Shown one piece after another: positions 29,656 to 61,265 of a stretch of DNA of 64,000 nucleotides. The notes under the pieces were generated by a model that saw nothing but the letters and a program-made list of their open reading frames with translations, did no database searches and was not told the origin of the DNA. The number at the start of each line of letters is the position of its first letter. Positions within the stretch are counted from its first letter, which is position 1. The DNA is taken from positions 249,612,001-249,676,000 of the forward strand of contig JBNRSN020000007.1 in assembly GCA_051313645.2 (NCBI GenBank), written 5' to 3'. Origin of the DNA: Centroscyllium fabricii (lineage: Eukaryota). The position numbers were made by a program, and so were the translations under genes.

Positions 29656-29837
29656 TTTATGAAAGTAGGGAACACACCAATCAGCATTTAGCAAGCAGGA
29701 ATGGAAACCACCATTGATGAAGTTTAAAACACTGCAGAGCAAAAGATCAACAATCAGCAAACAGTTACCAGGTGGAAGGAATGAAGTGGGACTCAAATTA
29801 ATTGTTTCAAATTATTTTAAAACTCATTTAAGTTATT

Positions 29838-30599
29838 GGCCCAGAAATTGCAGTGGAGCCTTCATGCGGGTGCAGTACCTGCTTAACGCACTTGAACTGC
29901 CCATATTCAGTTTTGCTTTTTTGCACTCAGAAATTGCAGTTAGCCCAGCTTGTCAGAGCTCCATGCGAGCTTCATGGGCAACTGAACGGTGTAATTAGTG
30001 CGAGATGGCTTTTGAGACCACCTGATTGACAGGGAGCCAATCAGTGGAACCAATTCTCCGTTCAAAACTTCCACAAAAAATCTGTACGAGTTCTGAAAGG
30101 AGAGATTGCCCAAAAGACATCTAAACTCAAAAATAAAATTTTACAACACCACATTTTTTTAACATTACCCCAACTAACACAAATAACCTATTTTAAAGAA
30201 AAAATAAAAATTTACAGAAACATTTTTCAACTTCCAACAGGTATAAAAAAATATTTACCTGTCTTTAAAGTTATCAACAATTAAAAATCTGAAAAAACAA
30301 CAATTAAAATCAATAAAATACACACTTACCAGCTAAAAACGGCTACTTACGACTGCTTTTTCCCAGCGTAGAAAATCCTGGTCTTGGTCCGTAGAAAAAC
30401 TTTTTAAAAATATCGGAATGACTGGATGCTCCCGTAGTTCGATGCTTCCTGCGCTGGACCTCGCAGGAACCCCAACCTTCCCGCTGGCCGGCATAGGAAA
30501 ACCCGAAGCTGCGCTACCGGCTGCTTCCTGCAGGTTTAAGCTCTGGTGCGCTCGCACCAGAGCTTAAACCCGATATGCGCAGACTGCAATTTCTGGCCC
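29838..30599. mobile_element. MITE family C (Harbinger-type)
   Basis: 17-bp TIR ggcccagaaattgcagt / actgcaatttctggccc; TSD ATT on both sides; inverted sister copy at 41980-42742. Confidence 0.9.
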
Positions 30600-31889
30600 A
30601 TTATCTTGTTTTCTCGCCAAGCTGATGAATTACTACAGGCTGTACTATAAATAAGATTTGTTACATAATAAAAAAAAATTGAAGTTACGAAGCTTACAAG
30701 AAAATGAGTACCTCTACTGATACAATATCAATTTCTGTTTGAAATGTCTCCAATAATATTTTCTGTTGAAGCCAGTGAGTATCCGAGAGCCTCTCAGGTC
30801 ATCACTCCCAGTTCAATAGACTCAGCAACCTGGCAGACTACAGCCCCCATCATACATTTTCGCCTACACCTCATAGAAATTGTTTTATGATTGAGAGCAA
30901 GATTAGCCATTCACAGAGTACACCAGGACTTGCTGTGTGTAAACCCCACCCACTTCTGCGCACCTATGGATGAATAAAAATGGCTGCAGATGAAAACCCT
31001 CAAAAGCCATTTTTACATAGAAACATAGAAACATAGAAGATAGGGGCAAGAGTAGGCCATTCAGCCCCTCGAACCTGCTCCGCCATTCGATGCGATCATG
31101 GCTGACCATCCAAATTCAGTACCCTGTCCCTGCATTCTCCCCATATCCTTTTAGCCTTAAGAAATATATCCAACTCCTTCTTGAATATATTTAATGATTT
31201 GGCCTCAACTGCCTTCTGTGGTAAAGAATTCCACAGGTTCACCACTCTCTGGGTGAAGAAATTCCTCCTCATCTCTGTCCTAAAGGACTTAACTCTTATC
31301 CTTAGACTATGACCCCTGGTTTTGGACTCCACCACCATTGGGAACATCCTTCCTGCATCTAGTCGGTCCAGTCCTGATAGAATTTTATAAGTTTCAATGA
31401 GATCCCCTCTCATTCTTCTAAGCTCCAGCGAGTACAAGCCTAAGTGGCCCAATCTCTCTTCATACGTCATTGCTGCCATCACAGGTATCAGTCTGGTGAA
31501 TCTTTCCTGCACTCCTTCCATGGAAAGAACTGTGACCGAAATAACGACCTCGTGGATGAGTAGTTAGAAGGGTGAAACAATACGGCTTTTATTCGCTAAA
31601 TGGTGGACATGCACCAGCTAGTCGACCGTCCCCAGGAATGGCCGGGGGATGGGAGACGGCCGCTTATGTACCTCCTCCTGGGAGGGAGGAGTCGCGGGTG
31701 GAGCCAGCATGGGCATGTCCAGGTAATCGCACACAATAGGCTATGGTACAACATGGAGAATAGTACGATTACAGTAATACAGATATATACATAACAGGGT
31801 GGATATATACAGGAACCAGTGGTTTACCACATTCACCCCTTCTTTAAAACAAAAGTCCGGCGGGGTGAACGCGACAGTTCTTTTTAAAA

Positions 31890-34800
31890 TTACAAATTAA
31901 GTCGTTCAGGCGGCCTGGTGATCCTGGTTGAGCGTCGCACCGCTGGTGGTGTCCGCGGTCGTGGAGTGGCTGGTCGGGTTGGTTGCACCGTTGGTGATGA
32001 TGCCGGTTGGCGAGCGATGGTCTTGTTGGTGCCCTTGCGGTGACAGTAGGTGGCACGCTCTCTCCCTCGTCGTCTGAATCTAGGGGGTGTGTACTGTGGA
32101 GCCATGCTGGAGGCCATGCCGTGCTGCCCATGAAAAGTTCCCCGAATACTCACTATTGGTTGATCAGTCGACAATAATCGATGCAGACACTGTTGTATAG
32201 TAAAAAGTCTTTTTCCTTTATTACGAGCTCAGAGAAAAGTTACTCGAGCCAGCACTGATCCCCAAGGGATTCTGGGGTAGGCGGGTTAACAAGTCTGCCT
32301 TCCCCCTTGTAAGTGCCTTCTTTTATTGTTACAAACTATAATCAATCAACCGAGTGACAATAAACAAGAATACTATATGTTCCAATCAGCTTACTTTCCC
32401 CATCTATGACGTTGATCAAAGGTGTTTCTTCTGCTGTAGTTTCTTATCTGATGATCTTATCTGATCTGCTATGTAGCTTATACTAAGGTTGTCTCTTTTG
32501 ATGTAGTTTCTTCGGAGACTCTGATTTATTGGTTCCTGCCTGTGATCAGCTCCAATTACTGGCCTAACTTTCTTCTATCTTTATAGCACACCAAGTTTGA
32601 AACATTAAGCAGCACTAAGCAGTTTTCACATTCCACACCCACAGGTGCCGGGTAGACGTACCGGGGTGCTGGGTTCTCGTGCCGGGGAGCGTACCTTGGC
32701 GCCGGTGGCCCGGGTGGAGTGGCTGGCCGTCTTGGGAGCGTGGGCTGCTGGGCGGGGCTGGTTTTGGGGGCTCCCGCTGGCGCCAGGTCCTTGATGGACA
32801 CGGTGTCCTCCCTCCCATCAGGGTACGCCACGTAGGCGTACTGGGGATTGGCGTGCAGGAGGTGAACCCGTTCGACCAGAGGATCTGCCTTGTGGCCCCT
32901 CACGTGCTTCCGTAGTAGGACTGGTCCCGGGGATAGCAGCCATGATGGTAGCGAGGTCCCGGAAGCCGACTTCCTGGGGAAGGCAAAAAGTCGCTCGTGA
33001 GGGGTGGCATTAGTGGCTGTACACAGGAGGGACCGGATGGAGTGGAGCGCTTCAGGGAGGACGTCCTGCCAGCGGGAGACTGGGAGGCCTTTAGACCGTA
33101 GGGCTAATAGGATGGCCTTCCAGACAGTGGCGTTCTCCCTCTCTACCTGTCCGTTCCCCCGGGGGTTATAGCTGGTAGTCCTGCTAGTGGCGATGCCTTT
33201 GGCTAGCAGGAACTGACGTAGCTCGTCACTCATAAAAGAGGCCCCCCGGTCGCTATGGATGTAGCTGGGGTAGCCGAACAGAGAGAAGATGCTGTGGAGG
33301 GCTTTGATCCCAGTGGCTGAGGTCATGTCCGGGCAGGGGATGGCAAAAGGGAAGCGGGAGTACTCGTCAATGACGTTGAGGAAGTACACGTTCCTGTTGG
33401 TGGAGGGAAGGGGCCCTTTGAAATCGACGCTGAGTCGTTCAAAGGGGCGGGTGGCCTTGATCAGATGCGCCCGGTCTGGCCGATAGAAGTGCGGCTTGCA
33501 CTCCGCACAGACCTGGCAGTTGCTGGTCATGGTCTTGACCTCCTCGATGGAGTAGGGGAGGTTGCGGGACTTCACAAAGTGAACCAACCTGGTAACCCCC
33601 GGGTGGCAGAGGTCGTTGTGCAGGGTTTGGAGGCGGTCTGTCTGTGCGCTGGCACAGGTACCGCGGGATAGGGCGTCTGGGGGTTCGTTAAATTTCCCGG
33701 GCCGGTACAAGATATCGTAATTGAATGCGGAGAGCTCAATTCTCCACCTTAATATCTTGTCGTTCTTGATTTTACCCCGCTCTTTGTTGTTGAACATAAA
33801 AGCGACTGAGCGTTGGTCAGTCAGCAGGGTAAATCGCTTGCCGGCCAGGTAGTGCTTCCAGTGACGCACTGCTTCAACGATGGCCTGGGCCTCCTTCTCG
33901 ACTGAGGAGTGACGGGTCTCGGGGCCCTGGAGGGTACGTGAGAAGAAGGCCACGGGTCTGCCCGCCTGGTTAAGGGTGGCGGCCAGGGCAAAGTCCGATG
34001 CATCGCTCTCTACCTGGAATGGGACGGACTCGTCCACGGCGTGCATCGTTGCCTTTGCAATGTCGTCCTTAATGCCGCAGAATGCCGCGCGGGCATCTGC
34101 GGACAGGGGAAATGAGGTTGATTTAAGTAGTGGGCGAGCTTTGTCCGCATAGTTGGGGACCCACTGGGCATAATAGGCAAAGAAACCCAAGCACCGTTTA
34201 AGGGCCTTGGGGGAGTGGGGGAGGGGAAGCTCCAGGAGGGGGCGCATGCGGTTCGGGTCGGACCGATGACCCCATTCTCCACAACACTGCCGAGGATGGC
34301 GAGGCGGGTGGTACTGAACACACATTTTTCAGAGTTATACGTCAGATTGAGTGTTTTGGCAGTGTGGAGACATTTCTGGAGGTTGGCGTCATGGTCCTGC
34401 TGATCGTGGCCGCAGATGGTCACATTATCGAGGTACGGGAAAGTGGCTCGCAGCCCGTACTGATCGACCTTTCGGTCCATCTCCCTTTGGAAGACCGAGA
34501 CCCCATTCGTGATGCCAAACGGGACCCTGAGGAAGTGGTAGAGGCGACCGTCAGCCTCGAAGGCAGTATAGAGACGGTCCTCTGGGCGAATGGGGAGCTG
34601 GTGATACGCGGACTTCAGATCTATGGTTGAGAACACCCGGAACTGCGCGATCTGATTCACCATGTCCGCTATCCGGGGGAGGGGGTATGCGTCTAACTGG
34701 GTGAACCGGTTGATGGTCTGACTATAGTCCACTACCATCCGGTTCTTAGCTCCGGTCTTCACCACCACTACCTGCGCCCTCCAGGGGCTATTACTGGCCT

Positions 34801-36334
34801 CGATAACCCCCTCCTTCAGGAGGCGCTGCACCTCGGACTTGATAAAGTCCATGTCCCCAGCACTGTAGCGCCTACTTTTGGTGGCGACGGGCTTGCAGTC
34901 TGGGGTGAGGTTGGCAAAGAGCGAGGGAGGGGCGACCTTAAGGGTCGAGAGGCCACAGGTAGCGCGCCGAGGGTGCTGCGCCGCACGCCGGTTGCTGACT
35001 GTGAGCGGGGGAAGGGGCCCACCGTACGCCATGGTAACGCTTTGGAGATGGCACAGGAAGTCCAGACCCAATAGTAGTGGAGCACAGAGCTGCGGCAGCA
35101 CGAAAAAGCTAAAGTTACTAAAGTGCACGCCCCGCACCGTTAGAGCCACTGCGCAACGCCCGGAGACGTCCGCAGATTCTGATTTGGAAGCCATTGAGAT
35201 CTTTTGGCTCGCTGGCATAACCTTAAGGGAGAGGCGCCTTACTGTTTCAGGATGAACAAAACTCACCGTGCTCCCGCTTTCGAAAAGGCACTCAACGTCC
35301 TGTCCGTTCACTCCCACCGGCATCATCGACTTCCCGAGTGATTGAGCCTTGTTCTGGTCCAGGGTCACCGATGCTAATATTGGATTAGACGATTCCTCTT
35401 GATCCGGCGAGAAGTCCTCCGGGGCCTGGTCCCAAGATGGCTGCCGCCATGTGGTGTACTGCGGAGGGGGTGGCTGGGTCCAATATGGCGTCTGCTGCCA
35501 CGTGATGTGCTGAGTGGGGGGTGGCTGAGTCCAATATGGCTGTCCCCATGTTCCACACGCGGCACTGCCCGGTTTCGGTTTTGGGGCTGCAGTCGCCTTA
35601 CAGACTTTAGCGTAATGTCCCTTCTTTCCACATTTTGAGCAGGCCGCGTCTCTTGCCGGGCAGCTGCATCTCGGATGCTGAGACTGCCCGCAGAAGTAGC
35701 ATTTTGCCGTCTTAGCGTGGGCGGCTGCGATCATTTCTTCCGCCGGACGTTGTGCCGGCGCTGTCCAAGTTGTCGGGGCTGGGCCCGTATAGTTACCGGA
35801 GTATGTCGATAAGTTTAACGATGCCACATCCAGCGCGTTGCCCAGGTCCGCTGTTGCCTGCAGGTCAAGGCCGTTCTGTTCTAACAGCCTTTGTCTGATA
35901 TAGTCCGACCTGAGGCCTGTAACATATGCGTCTCTGATTAAACAGTCCACATGGACCTGGGCCGATTGCGCTCTGCAGTCACAGGCCCGTGATAGCACTC
36001 TCAGCGCTCGTAAAAATTCCACGCTGGACTCACCGGGTTGCTGCTTTCTGGTGGCTAGGATGTGTCTGGCGTGGACGATATTGGGTGCCCGGTTGTACTC
36101 CGCCTTGAGGATCCTGATAGCATCCAAGAATGATGATGCGTCCACGATCATGGAGTACACCTGAGGGCCCACCCGGGCGTTGAGGAGCCGCCGTTTGTCC
36201 TCTTCGGTCCTGACGACCCCTGCGTTCGCTCTCATGTACGCATCGAAACAGTCATACCAGTGCGAGAATGTGTTTGATGCGCCTGGTGTCCGGGGATCCA
36301 ATTCGAACGTTGCTGGCTTGAGCATTGCGTCCAT
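31890..36334 (-). pseudogene. Gag-Pol polyprotein with one frameshift near 34260, PR motif LFESGS, and the INT tail split by a nested LTR
   Basis: Zn knuckles CYFCGQSQH..C and CSKCGKKGHYAKVC; RT IDLKSAYHQ..VPFGI..YLDN; RH ESDASD..EKEA..TDQ; INT H..HPG..C..C, DFKGP..SDRG..GQVER; C-terminus RRSTRITRPPERLNL. Confidence 0.92.
32131..32637 (-). mobile_element. Solo LTR (507 bp, 4-bp TSD, possibly ERV class I) nested in the Gypsy integrase tail
   Basis: TG..CA ends; TSD CCCA at 32127-32130 and 32638-32641; AT-rich inside GC-rich coding DNA; minus-strand AATAAA near 32217-32222. Confidence 0.85.
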
Positions 36335-36571
36335 CTTCAAAATTTAGCGAATAAAATTGTGACCGAAATAACGACCTCGTGGACGAGTAGTTAGAAGGGT
36401 GAAACAATACGGCTTTTATTCGCTAAATGGTGGACATGCACCAGCTAGTCGACCGTCCCCAGGAATGGCCGGGGGATGGGAGACGGCCGCTTATGTACCT
36501 CCTCCTGGGAGGGAGGAGTCGCGGGTGGAGCCAGCATGGGCATGTCCAGGTAATCGCACACAATAGGCTAT

Positions 36572-36624
36572 AGAAGATAGGATCATAGAAGATAGGAGCA
36601 GGAGTAGGCCATTCAGCCCTTTGA
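36572..36624 (-). mobile_element. 53-bp CR1/SINE 3'-tail insertion in the 5' LTR
   Basis: Absent from the other LTR; GCTAT duplicated at 36567-36571 and 36625-36629; sequence is the CR1 tail. Confidence 0.9.
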
Positions 36625-41961: not shown

Positions 41962-41979
41962 ATTAATGTCCAAGATAAT

Positions 41980-42742
41980 GGGCCAGAAATTCCAGTCTGC
42001 CCATATCGGGTTTAAGCTCTGGTGCGAGCGCACCAGAGCTTAAACCCGCAGGAAGCAGCCGGTAGCGCTGCTTCGGGTTTTCCTATGGCGGCCAGCGGGG
42101 GGGTTGGAGTTCCTGCGAGGTCCAGCGCAGGAAGCAGCAAACTACGGGTGCATCCAGGCATTCCGATTTTTAAAAAAGTTTTTCTACGGACCAAGACCAG
42201 TATTTTCTATGCTGGGAAAAAGCAGTCGTAAGTAGCCGTTTTTATCTGGTAAGTGTGTATTTTATTGATTTTAATTGTTGTTTTTTCAGGTTTTTAATTG
42301 TTGATAACTTTAAAGACAGGTAAGTATTTTTTTAGACCTGTGGAAAGTTGAAAAAAAATTCTGTAAATTTTAATTTTTTCTTTAAAATAGGTTATTTGTG
42401 TTAGTTGGGGTAATGTTAAAAAAATGTGGTGTTTGTAAAATTTTATTTTTGTGTTTAGATGTCTTTTGGGCAATCTCTCCTTTCAGAACTTGCACAGATT
42501 TCTCAGTGGAAGTTTTGAACGGAGAATTGGTTCCACTGATTGGCTCCCTGCCAATCAGGTGGTCTCAAAAGCCATCTCGCACTAATTACGCCCTTCAGAT
42601 GCCCATGAAACTCGCACAGAGCTCTGACAAGCTGGGCTAACTGCAATTTCTGAGTGCAAAAAAGCAAACCTGATTATGGGCAGTTCAAGTGCGTTAAGCA
42701 GGTACTGCACCCGCACGAAGGCTCCACTGCAATTTCTGGGCC
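41980..42742. mobile_element. MITE family C, inverted relative to 29838-30599
   Basis: TIRs gggccagaaatt / aatttctgggcc; TSD AAT at 41977-41979 and 42743-42745. Confidence 0.9.
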
Positions 42743-42856
42743 AATGTTTGAAATAAAACTATAAAATAAGTAATTACATATTTCACAATAATGTTGCATT
42801 TACCAATTGTGTCTTCTGTGTCTTTTAATATTTTCCTTAAAGATTTTGCTTTACAG

Positions 42857-54637: not shown

Positions 54638-56670
54638 GGCCGGAATTTTCCGAGGGTCAGCGGGTGGGATTGGTGGCGTGTCAGGTGGGAAATTTGATTT
54701 ATTTGACAGCTGGCATCCCGGCGCAATGCAACGCGCCTTTCTCAATGGTGCGTCTGTGATTTGCAGAGGCGGGCGACCCAATTACAGCAATTATTGGCTT
54801 GTTGACAGACCCTCAATAATGGTTTTAACCTTACCTTTTAACTGCTTACCTATGGGGTCCACGCTGCTCATGAACCACGTCTGTTAACCTGAGCTGGGAG
54901 TTGATTGGTTGATTAGTTGACAGCTTGAAATGTACTATAAAAGCTGTTCACTTTCCTAGCTCAGAAACTGTTGCTTACTCCATTTGGAACACAGATTGAG
55001 CTTTATGCAGGCTGCAAGTGTTTGGAGCAAACTCTCCATCTGGTATTACCTCATTGGAACAACCGCTCTCACCATTGACAGATTGCTTCTGTCATCTCAA
55101 CTACACCTGCCAGCTATGTCATCAGCATGGCTACCGTTTATACTGTTTCACCTTGGTCCTCAGAATCTGACCCTGAGCAGCCCCAACACCAGCAGCACCA
55201 GACACACCACCAATACCAACAACAACAACAACCTTCTCCGCAATCACCTGAAGCTGCACAGAACAGAGGGCATCAGCACCTGAGCACATTGCCACTTGGG
55301 AGGCCAGGGGTGGCCTCACCATGGTCAGATTTACTTCACTTGACACTGTACACTGTACACCCTGCTTGCCACATGATGCGCCAGGTTGGCAGCACCCCAC
55401 ACCAACAACATAAAGCATCTCTACAATGTCCAAGTCATTCCTTTCACACTCATCACCATTGGTGGGGTGATGGTGGGGGCGGCAGGATGTGGGGGGCGGG
55501 TAGCGTTATGTCTCATTATTCACTGCAACTCACTAAGCCACTTCCAAAGGTGCACACAAATCTGTCCAAGAATGCAAAGTGTTTGTGGTAAACCACAATA
55601 CGGTTTACCACCATATATCCGCTGTTGTATATAGTTACTTGCAATACCATTCACCACCACTGTTTGTAACCTCGGTTCTCGGAGGACTCGGTCAGTGCTG
55701 GCTCCACCCACATTCCGAGTATAAAGCCAGCGGCTGCTGAGTTTTCTCCATTTTCCCCTGGACTCGACTGTGGAAGGAGCCAGGCTCAAATCACTGCTAA
55801 TAAAAGCCTTAGTTGAACCTCAACCAGTCTTTGAGTTTAATTGATCATGCATCAGTGTTGAAAATAAAGATTTCAATGTTTGACAGCACATTAACAGAAA
55901 CTTTACATAAACATTGGATAAAATACCCAAATGGCAACCCTTGCGTGTTGTTAGTTGGTATGATTGCACTTGGATGAGGGTGAGTGTGAGGGGTGGCTCA
56001 TGAGATGGGGATGTGATAATGTAGATAAAGAAAGAGGGATGGGTGGAGGTACAAGGTATGTTGGTGTGAATAAGGATGTGCAGGTGTAGGGTAGGGAAGG
56101 CAGAGCGATGGGGATATGATATGGGACACAGGAGTGTGGCTTTGTACTCATGTTTCCTGATCTAATAAGATAATTGAAAGGTTTGCGCCACTGCACTCAG
56201 GTCCTCCTGATGACATCCCTGCTTGTGCCCTCCTGTGTAATGTGCAACCAGGCTGTGTTCGTCTCCAGTGGAGGTCTCTTCCGCCCATCGAAAAGGAAGA
56301 GGACCTGCCTGTGTGCTCTGACTCCCTCCATAAGCATATGGAGGGAATCATGGGAGAACTGGGTGCAGCCCAGCACTTCTGTGCAGTGATTGTCAGTGTT
56401 TGCAGCACATCAATGCTGTAGAACACTGAAAGCACAAACTTCAAAAGTAAGGTGGCCATGGTCCCTTTAAGGAAACCAGCTGAAAACATGTCATGAATTA
56501 CATCACCATACCCACTCCATCTAATTAGGCCAAGAAACGCACTGGGCAGGCTTAACAAGCCCCATTGAGGTAAGTTCATCTTAGGCAACAGGATGGAGCC
56601 AGCAGCGGGGCAGTGTCCCGCCACCAACATCAGCTGCACCAGACCCGCCAAGGTGAGCATAGTCTTGGCC
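54638..56670 (+). mobile_element. Internally deleted Harbinger related to 17680-25283
   Basis: ggccggaattttc left TIR; keeps the Q/H-rich transposase start (55127-55280) and the Myb first exon (about 56150-56400, minus); the middle is missing. Confidence 0.8.
55584..55854 (+). mobile_element. Solo LTR (271 bp)
   Basis: tgtggtaaacc..gcatca; TSD GTGTT at 55579-55583 and 55855-55859; TATAAA and AATAAA. Confidence 0.9.
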
Positions 56671-59459: not shown

Positions 59460-61265
59460 CACTGTTGCCTCACAGTACTAGAGACCCGGGTGTGGACTGA
59501 GGTGGAGACTTGAGCTCTCCGCTTTCAATTACAATATCTTGTACCGGCCCGGGAAATTCAATGAGCCCCCAGATGCCCTATCACGCGGTACATGTGCCAG
59601 CGTACAAGTAGACCGTCTCCAAACCCTGCACAACGACCTCTGCCACCCGGGGGTCACCAGGTTGGTCCACTTCGTTAAGTCCCGCAACCTCCCCTACTCC
59701 ATCAAGGAGTCAAGACCATGACCAGGAACTGCCAGGTCTGTGCGGAGTGCAAGCCGCACTTCTTTCGGCCAGACCGGGCGCACCTGATCAAGGCCACCCG
59801 CCCCTTTGAGCAACTCAGTGTCGATTTTAAAGGGCCCCTCCCCTCGTCCAACCGAAACGTGTACTTTCTGAACGTCATCGACGAGTACTCGTGTTTCCCC
59901 TTCGCCATCCCCTGCCCGGACATGACCTCCGCCACCATCATCAGGGCACTCCACAGCATTTTCTCCCTGTTCGGCTACCCCAGCTACATCCATAGCGACC
60001 GGGGGGCCTCTTTCATGAGTGACGAGCTGCGTCAGTTCCTGCTAGCCAAGGGCATCGCTACTAGCAGGACTACCAGCTATAACCCCCGGGGGAACAGACA
60101 GGTAGAGAGGGAGAACTCCACCATCTGGAAGGCCATCCTGTTAGCCCTACGGTCTAAAGGCCTCCCAGTCTCCCGCTGGCAGGACGTCTTCCCCGAAGCG
60201 CTCCACTCCATCCGGTCACTCCTCTGTACGGCCACCAACGCCACCCCTCACGAGCGACTTTTTGCCTTCCCTAGGAAGTCGGCTTCCGGGACCTCGCTGC
60301 CGTCATGGCTATCGTCCCCAGGACCAGTCCTACTCCGGAAGCACGTGAGAGGCCACAAGTCGGACCCCCTGGTCGAACGGGTCCACCTCCTGCACGCCAA
60401 CCCCCAGTACGCCTACGTGGCGTACCCCGACGGGAGGGCACCACAAGGGCACCGCAAGGGCACCAACGAGGGACCGAACGCCCACTGCTACCGACTCAAC
60501 AGCCAACGGTGCGCCCGCCGACTCCACCACCAGCGGTGCGCCGATCAACCAGAGAAACCAGGCCGCCCGACAGGCTGGACTTAAAAATAAAATTAAAAAA
60601 TTTAAACTGTCGCATTCGCCCCGCCGGACTTTTGTTTTAAAGAAGTGGTAAATATGGTAAACCACTTTGTAATATATATATGTATATATCTCTGTAACCA
60701 TGCTGTACATAGTTCACTGTGTATTGATACCTGGGCATGCCCATGCTGGCCCCGCCTGTGACTCCTCCTCCCCAGGACCAGGTACATAAGCGGCCGTCTC
60801 CCTTCCCCCAGCGATTCCTGGGGACGGTAGACTAGCTGGTGCATGCCCAGCTTTAGCTAATAAAAGCCGATTGTTTCACCTCTTAATATCTCGTCTCCGA
60901 GGTCGTTAATTCGGTAACACCGGGTTCAAATCCAGCCTCGGGTACTATCTGTGTGGAGTTTGCACATTCTCCCCGTGTCTGCGTGGGTTTCCTCCGGGTG
61001 CTCCGGTTTCCTCCCACAGTCCAAAGATGTGCGGGTTAGTTTGACTGGCCATGATAAATTGACCCTTAGTGTTAGGGGGATTGAATGTGTGGGGTTATGG
61101 GAATAGGGTGGGATATGTGTCGGTGCAGGCTCGATAGGGATCGAGGGATATGGGGAGAAGGCAGGGACAGGGTTTGGATGATCAGCCATGATCTCATTGA
61201 ATGGCAGAGCAGGCTCGAAGGGCCGAATGGCCTACTCCTGCTCCTATCTTCTATGTTTCTATGGA
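59460..61265 (+). mobile_element. V-SINE (HE1-like) split in its tRNA head by a Gypsy insertion
   Basis: gcctcacagtactagagacccggg [Gypsy] ccgggttcaaatccagcctcgg.. followed by V-domain and CR1 tail. Confidence 0.85.
59491..60919 (+). mobile_element. Deleted Gypsy provirus (integrase + 3' LTR 60653-60919)
   Basis: TSD CCGGG at 59486-59490 and 60920-60924; INT ORF 59718-60584 nearly identical in protein to 32556-34325; PPT aaagaagtggtaaa. Confidence 0.92.

Follow-up and report, generated by a model that had tools for sequence, protein, structure and literature searches.

A shark Ty3/gypsy element and its clade most likely prime reverse transcription from their own RNA

We found that a Ty3/gypsy element of Centroscyllium fabricii, encoded on the minus strand of the 64,000-nt stretch of DNA analysed here (the window), has a primer-binding site (PBS) that is complementary to its own LTR. 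The clade of this element most likely self-primes, and the helix between PBS and LTR is very likely real and clade-wide. For the shark lineages, comparison of genomic sequences suggests that the primer is probably a 5' fragment of the element's own transcript, about 53 nt long and paired to the PBS only by its last 14-15 bases. The cut that would free this fragment, the enzyme that would make it and the masking of the 5' poly(A) signal are parts of the model that we infer.

Results

An element whose PBS matches its own LTR

A Pfam scan of the window element recovered the Ty3/gypsy domain order of protease (PR), RT, RNase H and integrase. The other hallmarks of the group are also present, namely TG...CA LTRs, a polypurine tract (31836-31845, 4 nt ahead of the 3' LTR) and a target-site duplication, here the 5-bp GTTCT. 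Gag, with two CCHC knuckles, is followed by protease and RT (motif YLDN) at 34010-36334, where the reading frame of the window copy breaks late in RT. A further frame (32556-34328) encodes RNase H and an integrase without a chromodomain, and foreign sequence interrupts its 3' end (about 32640-32130). Neither the Pfam scan of the window element nor the domain annotation precomputed for 120 homologs contains a Chromo family. In minus sense, the LTR pair 36716-36358 (5' LTR, 359 nt, TG...CA) and 31831-31531 (3' LTR, 301 nt) differs by one substitution and a 58-nt insertion in the 5' LTR. The later insertion, at 36572-36624, is a 53-nt piece of the tail of a common host repeat and is flanked by a 5-nt duplication. 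Elsewhere in the window, on the plus strand, a sister lineage is represented by a 5'-truncated copy that has a 3' LTR (59500-60920), and a related family by what is probably a solo LTR (about 55580-55855). A long inverted pair (29826-30608 and 41971-42754, 92-96% alike and about 11.4-12.4 kb apart) flanks the element on both sides and probably represents two copies of another repeat.

The PBS (36342-36356) lies one spacer base, A (36357), behind the 5' LTR. It lacks TGG and is the reverse complement, at 15 of 15 positions, of the LTR segment 36414-36428; no further Watson-Crick pair extends the match. A 57-nt loop (36357-36413), made up of the remaining R, U5 and the spacer, separates the two strands and would be the template for minus-strand strong-stop DNA. 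The gag ATG follows 23 nt beyond the LTR end. A preceding sequence-only reading had reported this 15-nt complement, the loop length, the gag distance and the lack of a tRNA-type PBS; the recomputed coordinates agreed exactly, and TGG is indeed absent at the PBS position. When the LTR was shuffled 5000 times with its dinucleotides preserved, the longest PBS-type match was 11 nt and 0 of 5000 shuffles reached 15. The conserved helix comprises 14 bp, with the 15th pair confined to one subfamily. Among the 14 distinct host Lys and Cys tRNAs compared, the best match to the PBS was 4 nt. In contigs of two sequencing runs, at low depth, the 87-nt hairpin is skipped exactly (joint 36341/36429).

The helix covaries within the host and between families

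Protein hits place the clade in sharks, rays, cnidarians, crustaceans and nematodes, and the nearest named proteins come from sharks and rays (78-83% identical). Homologs share a single compact gag-pol ORF of about 1,100-1,550 aa, a 5-bp duplication and marine animal hosts. Of 63 near-full-length homologs (over 1,090 aa), 57 have two CCHC knuckles, and the RT motif is YxDN instead of YxDD in 81 of 98 motif hits. A search of a viral contig collection returned no relative, and Rfam, searched for a ribozyme or known RNA family, returned three matches, all far below the cut-off.

The 7.2-Gb host genome contains 48,662 exact PBS/LTR junctions by a pattern that leaves two bases free on each side; the reversed-pattern control gave 0. 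Among 100 junctions listed, 91 rows were readable, with the other 9 left out of the count, and both free bases were compensated in 82 of them (counted by eye). Four of the nine uncompensated rows carry CpG-type mismatches. Six dinucleotide pairs occupy the two free positions, and five of these occur inside one U5 lineage, where several of the switches arose repeatedly. Thirty close host copies preserve the PBS/LTR arrangement amid scattered changes, many at CpG. Across 17 hand-picked representatives of the shark lineages, 99.2% of the cells of the 14-bp helix are paired, with 19 double changes (0/500 shuffles), and RNAalifold of the shark alignment predicted no helix within the loop.

Does the pairing extend beyond the host? 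From metagenome contigs we retained 79 loci; 34 have a gag start and upstream DNA, and one, L040, has the junction at its 3' end. We tested 19 family representatives, taking L065 in place of L063 and excluding L036, whose gag start does not stand behind an LTR. The same helix, written in different letters, beat all 30 shuffles in 15 of the 19; L071 and L074 are paired only in part, and L045 and L082, neither with a verified LTR upstream, gave no helix signal. The layout is nearly constant: the LTR ends in CA and is followed by one spacer base and then by 11-19 nt complementary to an LTR segment that mostly ends in TAAA and precedes RCC, across a loop of mostly 35-66 nt. In most families a helix of 2-7 bp begins directly after the primer. 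Over 18 families (that of the window and 17 from metagenomes, with L045 and L082 left out), positions 5-11 pair in 123 of 126 cases, against 61.5 with shuffled partners. Positions 12-14, which were unused for anchoring, pair in 41 of 54 (shuffled 24.2, maximum 36). The near-identical metagenome copies L064 and L065 are set apart by one compensated pair. In an integrase tree without outgroup, helix-bearing families fall on both sides of the midpoint. Two metagenome contigs, L062 and L104, begin exactly with the first base of the paired segment, a coincidence that may reflect an assembly break.

The pairing site keeps a fixed register to the LTR end, as would be required of a primer site, and no set of tRNAs should be able to track its letter changes across families. 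The sequence-only reading had proposed that the element primes from its own RNA and had suggested looking for covariation of PBS and LTR segment in relatives. Covariation was found in the host lineages and in most metagenome families, and self-priming gains further support from genomic primer copies joined to LTR ends.

Genomic primer copies mark a start site upstream of the helix

A TATA box common to the shark lineages lies about 70 nt ahead of the helix, and an initiator-like CA stands about 31 nt beyond this box. In the window the TATA-like box is TACATAA (36491-36497), and its distance is the same in 16 of the 17 lineage representatives that were aligned. The initiator A at 36466, 31 nt past the TATA T, is the putative transcription start and 5' end of the primer, as judged from the endpoints of primer copies; the 53-nt primer would then span 36414-36466, with 36414-36428 as its paired 3' part. 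If a primer longer than the helix is copied by the plus strand, some LTRs should run into the PBS and then into the reverse complement of upstream R. In the host genome 1,310 LTR+PBS junctions, a few of them ordinary gag leaders, run on in this way, and the control gave 0.

We examined 90 of the first 100 listed copies, skipping 3 gag-leader rows and with the last 7 outside the sample, and set aside 12 (11 without an upstream segment of their own and 1 ordinary PBS). Of the 78 scored, 74 had a located TATA box. Among these listed copies, 20 of 74 end at TATA +30/+31, two of which have a common downstream flank and may be one event, and 24 of 74 end at +29 to +32 (the last base is the initiator A in 11 and the C preceding it in 9, and 4 are one base short). 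For the +30/+31 peak, p is about 2e-12 under a uniform null limited to +21..+57; the value is slightly conservative, as it was computed with 16 long copies where the actual number is 18. At this place an RNA has an end and a DNA template has none. The putative start site, placed in the shark lineages by where these copies stop, agrees with the sequence-only reading, which had put it about 38 nt upstream of the paired segment (TACATAA..CCATTCC). A C of the kind that a cap would template follows the stop in 4 of the 11 copies that end at the initiator A, which is no clear signal.

The 18 long copies among the 74 extend 195-244 nt, nearly all as far as the LTR 5' end, and the remaining copies have scattered endpoints and are mostly shorter. 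Six of the 18 have two U3 ends and a 5-bp duplication, as expected when a plus strand folds back on its own R and then integrates. These palindromic solo insertions of about 460-530 bp (L243, L267, L270, L294, L309 and L327) are a distinct class of LTR fossil. A polypurine tract stands in front of only 3 of the 78 scored copies. In one lineage 355 junctions diverge from the gag leader immediately past the PBS. One hundred of these non-gag junctions were listed, with a pattern that lets through about a third of random flanks: 98 are primer copies, 1 stops after 3 nt and 1 is a mutated normal leader; none shows a clean 14-nt stop followed by unrelated DNA. The stray copies look like integrated first plus strands that had copied the primer. 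They could also come from a plus strand ending in the PBS that switched onto uncut RNA.

Searches for fossils of the cut site gave 7 matches and then 19, of which 7 were indels of intact LTRs. In this small sample 8 of 12 truncated U5 pieces begin at GCC with 0-4 As. At L249, L256 and L264, U5 pieces run directly into internal pol sequence. In L249 and L256 the joint coincides with a short AGCC match at the putative cut site, and all three loci look like mis-transferred minus-strand strong-stop DNA.

The helix and the poly(A) signal

The paired part of the primer holds the AATAAA of the 5' LTR (36415-36420). Folding predicts an unpaired probability for AAUAAA of 0.00-0.04 in the leader and 0.64-0.86 in the 3' LTR, where the hexamer (31588-31593) is predicted to be unpaired. 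The hexamer is invariant across the 17 shark sequences while adjoining positions change, which points to a second constraint. Just ahead of it ends a covarying U3:R helix (U3 arm 36540-36548, R arm 36431-36439) that can form in RNA only in the 3' LTR copy. UGUA motifs stand at the base of this helix in several lineages, and its arms also read as what we take to be p53-type half-sites.

The sequence-only reading had suggested that the helix could mask the 5' poly(A) signal. Folding favours this idea, and differences between families weaken it: in 17 correctly anchored families the hexamer is AATAAA (6), ATTAAA (5), GTTAAA (4), TTTAAA (1) or GATAAA (1), and L078 (120-200) forms a 12-bp helix without TAAA and without RCC after it. 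We hold masking, as the folding model predicts it, to be only a little better than an even bet. A search for poly(A)-tailed retrocopies that would map the 3' end found 0, and contigs of four sequencing runs, genomic-looking, showed no transcript start or end.

A model of priming and its alternatives

We propose that Pol II transcription of the window element would start at 36466 and that nt 39-53 of the transcript, ending in AAUAAAA, would pair with the PBS. The RNA would be cut directly after AAUAAAA, between 36414 and 36413 as the PBS register implies, likely by the RNase H of RT as in Tf1, and a 3'-OH would result. RT would then copy the 57-nt loop into about 57 nt of minus-strand strong-stop DNA, which would jump to the 3' R downstream of AAUAAA. 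A primer of 53 nt would give the plus strand an unpaired tail, a problem that a displacement cycle like that of Ty3 would avoid. In such a cycle the first plus strand would copy the whole primer and be displaced, and a later plus strand would make the transfer. Displaced first strands, unchanged or folded back on their own R, would be the stray genomic copies, so the cycle would account for both normal replication and these copies. In the same helix the 5' AAUAAA would be hidden, and the 3' AAUAAA would remain accessible.

Could the productive primer be shorter? In a scheme of the Tf1 type, productive RNAs would start at, or be trimmed to, the paired 11-14 nt, and the 53-nt copies would be side products, made from longer transcripts or after a switch to uncut RNA. 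We regard this as unlikely, even though an A at -11 (12 of 18 families) and a G at -10 (15 of 18) are conserved, two families pair across exactly 11 nt with A as the first base, and TTAGT presumably resembles an initiator. The stray copies are failures, a bias that also speaks for a short primer, and a productive primer trimmed to 14 nt would go unrecorded in the genome. However, positions 12-14 covary, the listed non-gag junctions of the one lineage lack a clean 14-nt stop, and the shark helix begins with a pyrimidine, with the sole conserved TATA/initiator pair about 40 nt upstream. A primer made from the 3' copy of the segment, in which the 3' end of the RNA with U3 still attached pairs with the PBS in cis or across a dimer, seems highly improbable to us. 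It would suit the 18 of 74 copies that continue through U3, several loci without their own U3-R that have an inverted copy into U3, and the predicted single-strandedness of the 3' copy. But the main stop is the initiator, a point at which no 3' copy terminates; the LTR 5' TG is the usual endpoint of the long copies, six of which have target-site duplications, as expected from fold-back of plus-strand DNA; and the local 57-nt hairpin should win kinetically.

We give the least credence to a helix that is regulatory only, acting in poly(A) masking or translation while a tRNA, a tRNA fragment or another host RNA primes. The helix does cover AAUAAA, in shark lineages 7-9 nt separate its end from the gag ATG, and the tRNA comparison covers Lys and Cys tRNAs only. 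Yet TGG is missing, the site tracks the LTR letter for letter in 18 families at a fixed register to the LTR end, and the element's own leader is joined to LTR ends in those 98 of 100 listed cases from one lineage. A primer built by splicing was considered as well, given a donor-like TATA region and an acceptor-like TTTAG; we rejected it, since the PBS pairs with the unspliced letters and the contigs of the four sequencing runs contain no such joint.

Returning to the long self-primer, its broadest formulation is that a widespread animal Gypsy clade uses a third type of minus-strand primer. This would be a capped leader of about 53 nt with the poly(A) hexamer at its 3' terminus, and only that end would dock, as in a tRNA. 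A single helix would turn the poly(A) site of the 5' LTR into a site of priming. We see this formulation as evenly balanced between right and wrong.

Discussion

How often have LTR elements given up tRNA priming, and how does RT make and remove RNA primers? The window case bears on both questions, as it would be self-priming in a non-chromovirus animal clade with tens of thousands of copies in the host genome. In this clade the primer would also be longer, would pair only in part and would be tied to the poly(A) signal. Annotation that relies on the PBS, and silencing by tRNA fragments, would miss such elements. Integrated first plus strands would make primer identity and start sites readable from genome sequence alone; if so, over a thousand integrated primer copies map the primer 5' end in this genome without RNA data.

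Repbase notes are said to include self-primed Gypsy families in zebrafish and sea urchin. Our literature search, with subscription journals, GyDB, Repbase and bioRxiv supplements outside its range, returned no paper on self-priming in the clade of the window element. In the portions of the literature surveyed, Tf1/sushi and two plant lineages are the groups associated with self-priming, and their primer is located at the mRNA 5' end. The accessible parts of PMC6934838, PMC6238403, PMC2864245, PMC554778, PMC3601003 and bioRxiv 10.1101/2023.10.26.564294 do not describe the present case. PMC554778 also reports YVDN in Cer7-12, with an activity that it describes as untested.

Where does the clade belong among known elements? 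The sequence-only reading had called the element Mag-like. Two CCHC knuckles in Gag are a feature of the Mag lineage, and their presence here suggests possible membership. The compact gag-pol ORF, the 5-bp duplication and the marine hosts would likewise be shared with Mag and Cigr-1, and the ORF and LTR sizes presumably resemble those of Cigr-1. Described Mag-lineage elements are tRNA-primed and have YxDD, whereas the window group has YxDN and a self-complementary PBS. Unlike tRNA-primed LTR elements in general, the window element has no TGG-initial PBS complementary to a tRNA 3' end. Half-tRNA priming of the copia type finds an internal tRNA match of at best 4 nt among the 14 Lys and Cys tRNAs, and covariation argues against it. 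The HIV-1 poly(A) hairpin is a helix that hides the 5' AAUAAA, local and separate from the PBS. The window element is similar in that a predicted helix hides this signal, but here the PBS itself would be the masking strand.

The closest parallels in priming lie in Tf1/Tf2 of Schizosaccharomyces pombe, Tj1, Tosmo1-3 and the Tf1/sushi chromoviruses. These have no tRNA site; their PBS is complementary to their own R, and a primer cut from the transcript is extended over U5 (PMC4600332, PMC5341516, PMC10085805). Their primers are located at the mRNA 5' end (PMC10085805, PMC4600332), and the RNase H of RT is modelled as cutting the Tf2 primer (PMC5341516). The window element likewise has a PBS complementary to its own LTR and no tRNA site. 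Unlike these elements, it would pair only the last 14-15 of about 53 primer bases, with a primer that ends at the poly(A) hexamer. In the shark genome the main endpoint of the primer copies, TATA+30/31, falls about 38 nt ahead of the helix, which suggests a primer that is not paired from the very mRNA 5' end. The three-duplex pretzel structure of the Tf1/sushi group may be compared with the 2-7 bp helix behind the primer in most families and with the shark alignment, for which RNAalifold gave no helix inside the loop. The element has no chromodomain at the integrase C-terminus, and since its paired segment also appears to lie away from the 5' end, it is not a Tf1/sushi element.

Self-priming is further listed in PMC6317226, as predicted from PBS-LTR complementarity, for plant Tcn1 (gypsy) and TAR (copia) beside Tf1/sushi, so the trait arose more than once. 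Tcn1 and TAR differ from the window clade in lineage and host, and the part of the source consulted gives no primer length or overlap with a poly(A) signal (PMC6317226). In Ty3, tRNAiMet is the primer and 12 nt of it are copied; the first plus strand extends into this primer and is displaced, and transfer is left to a later one (PMC5371799). In the window clade, unlike Ty3, the copy can reach the primer 5' end and is self-complementary. Displacement of the first plus strand, as described for Ty3, would account for the stray copies that remain in the shark genome.
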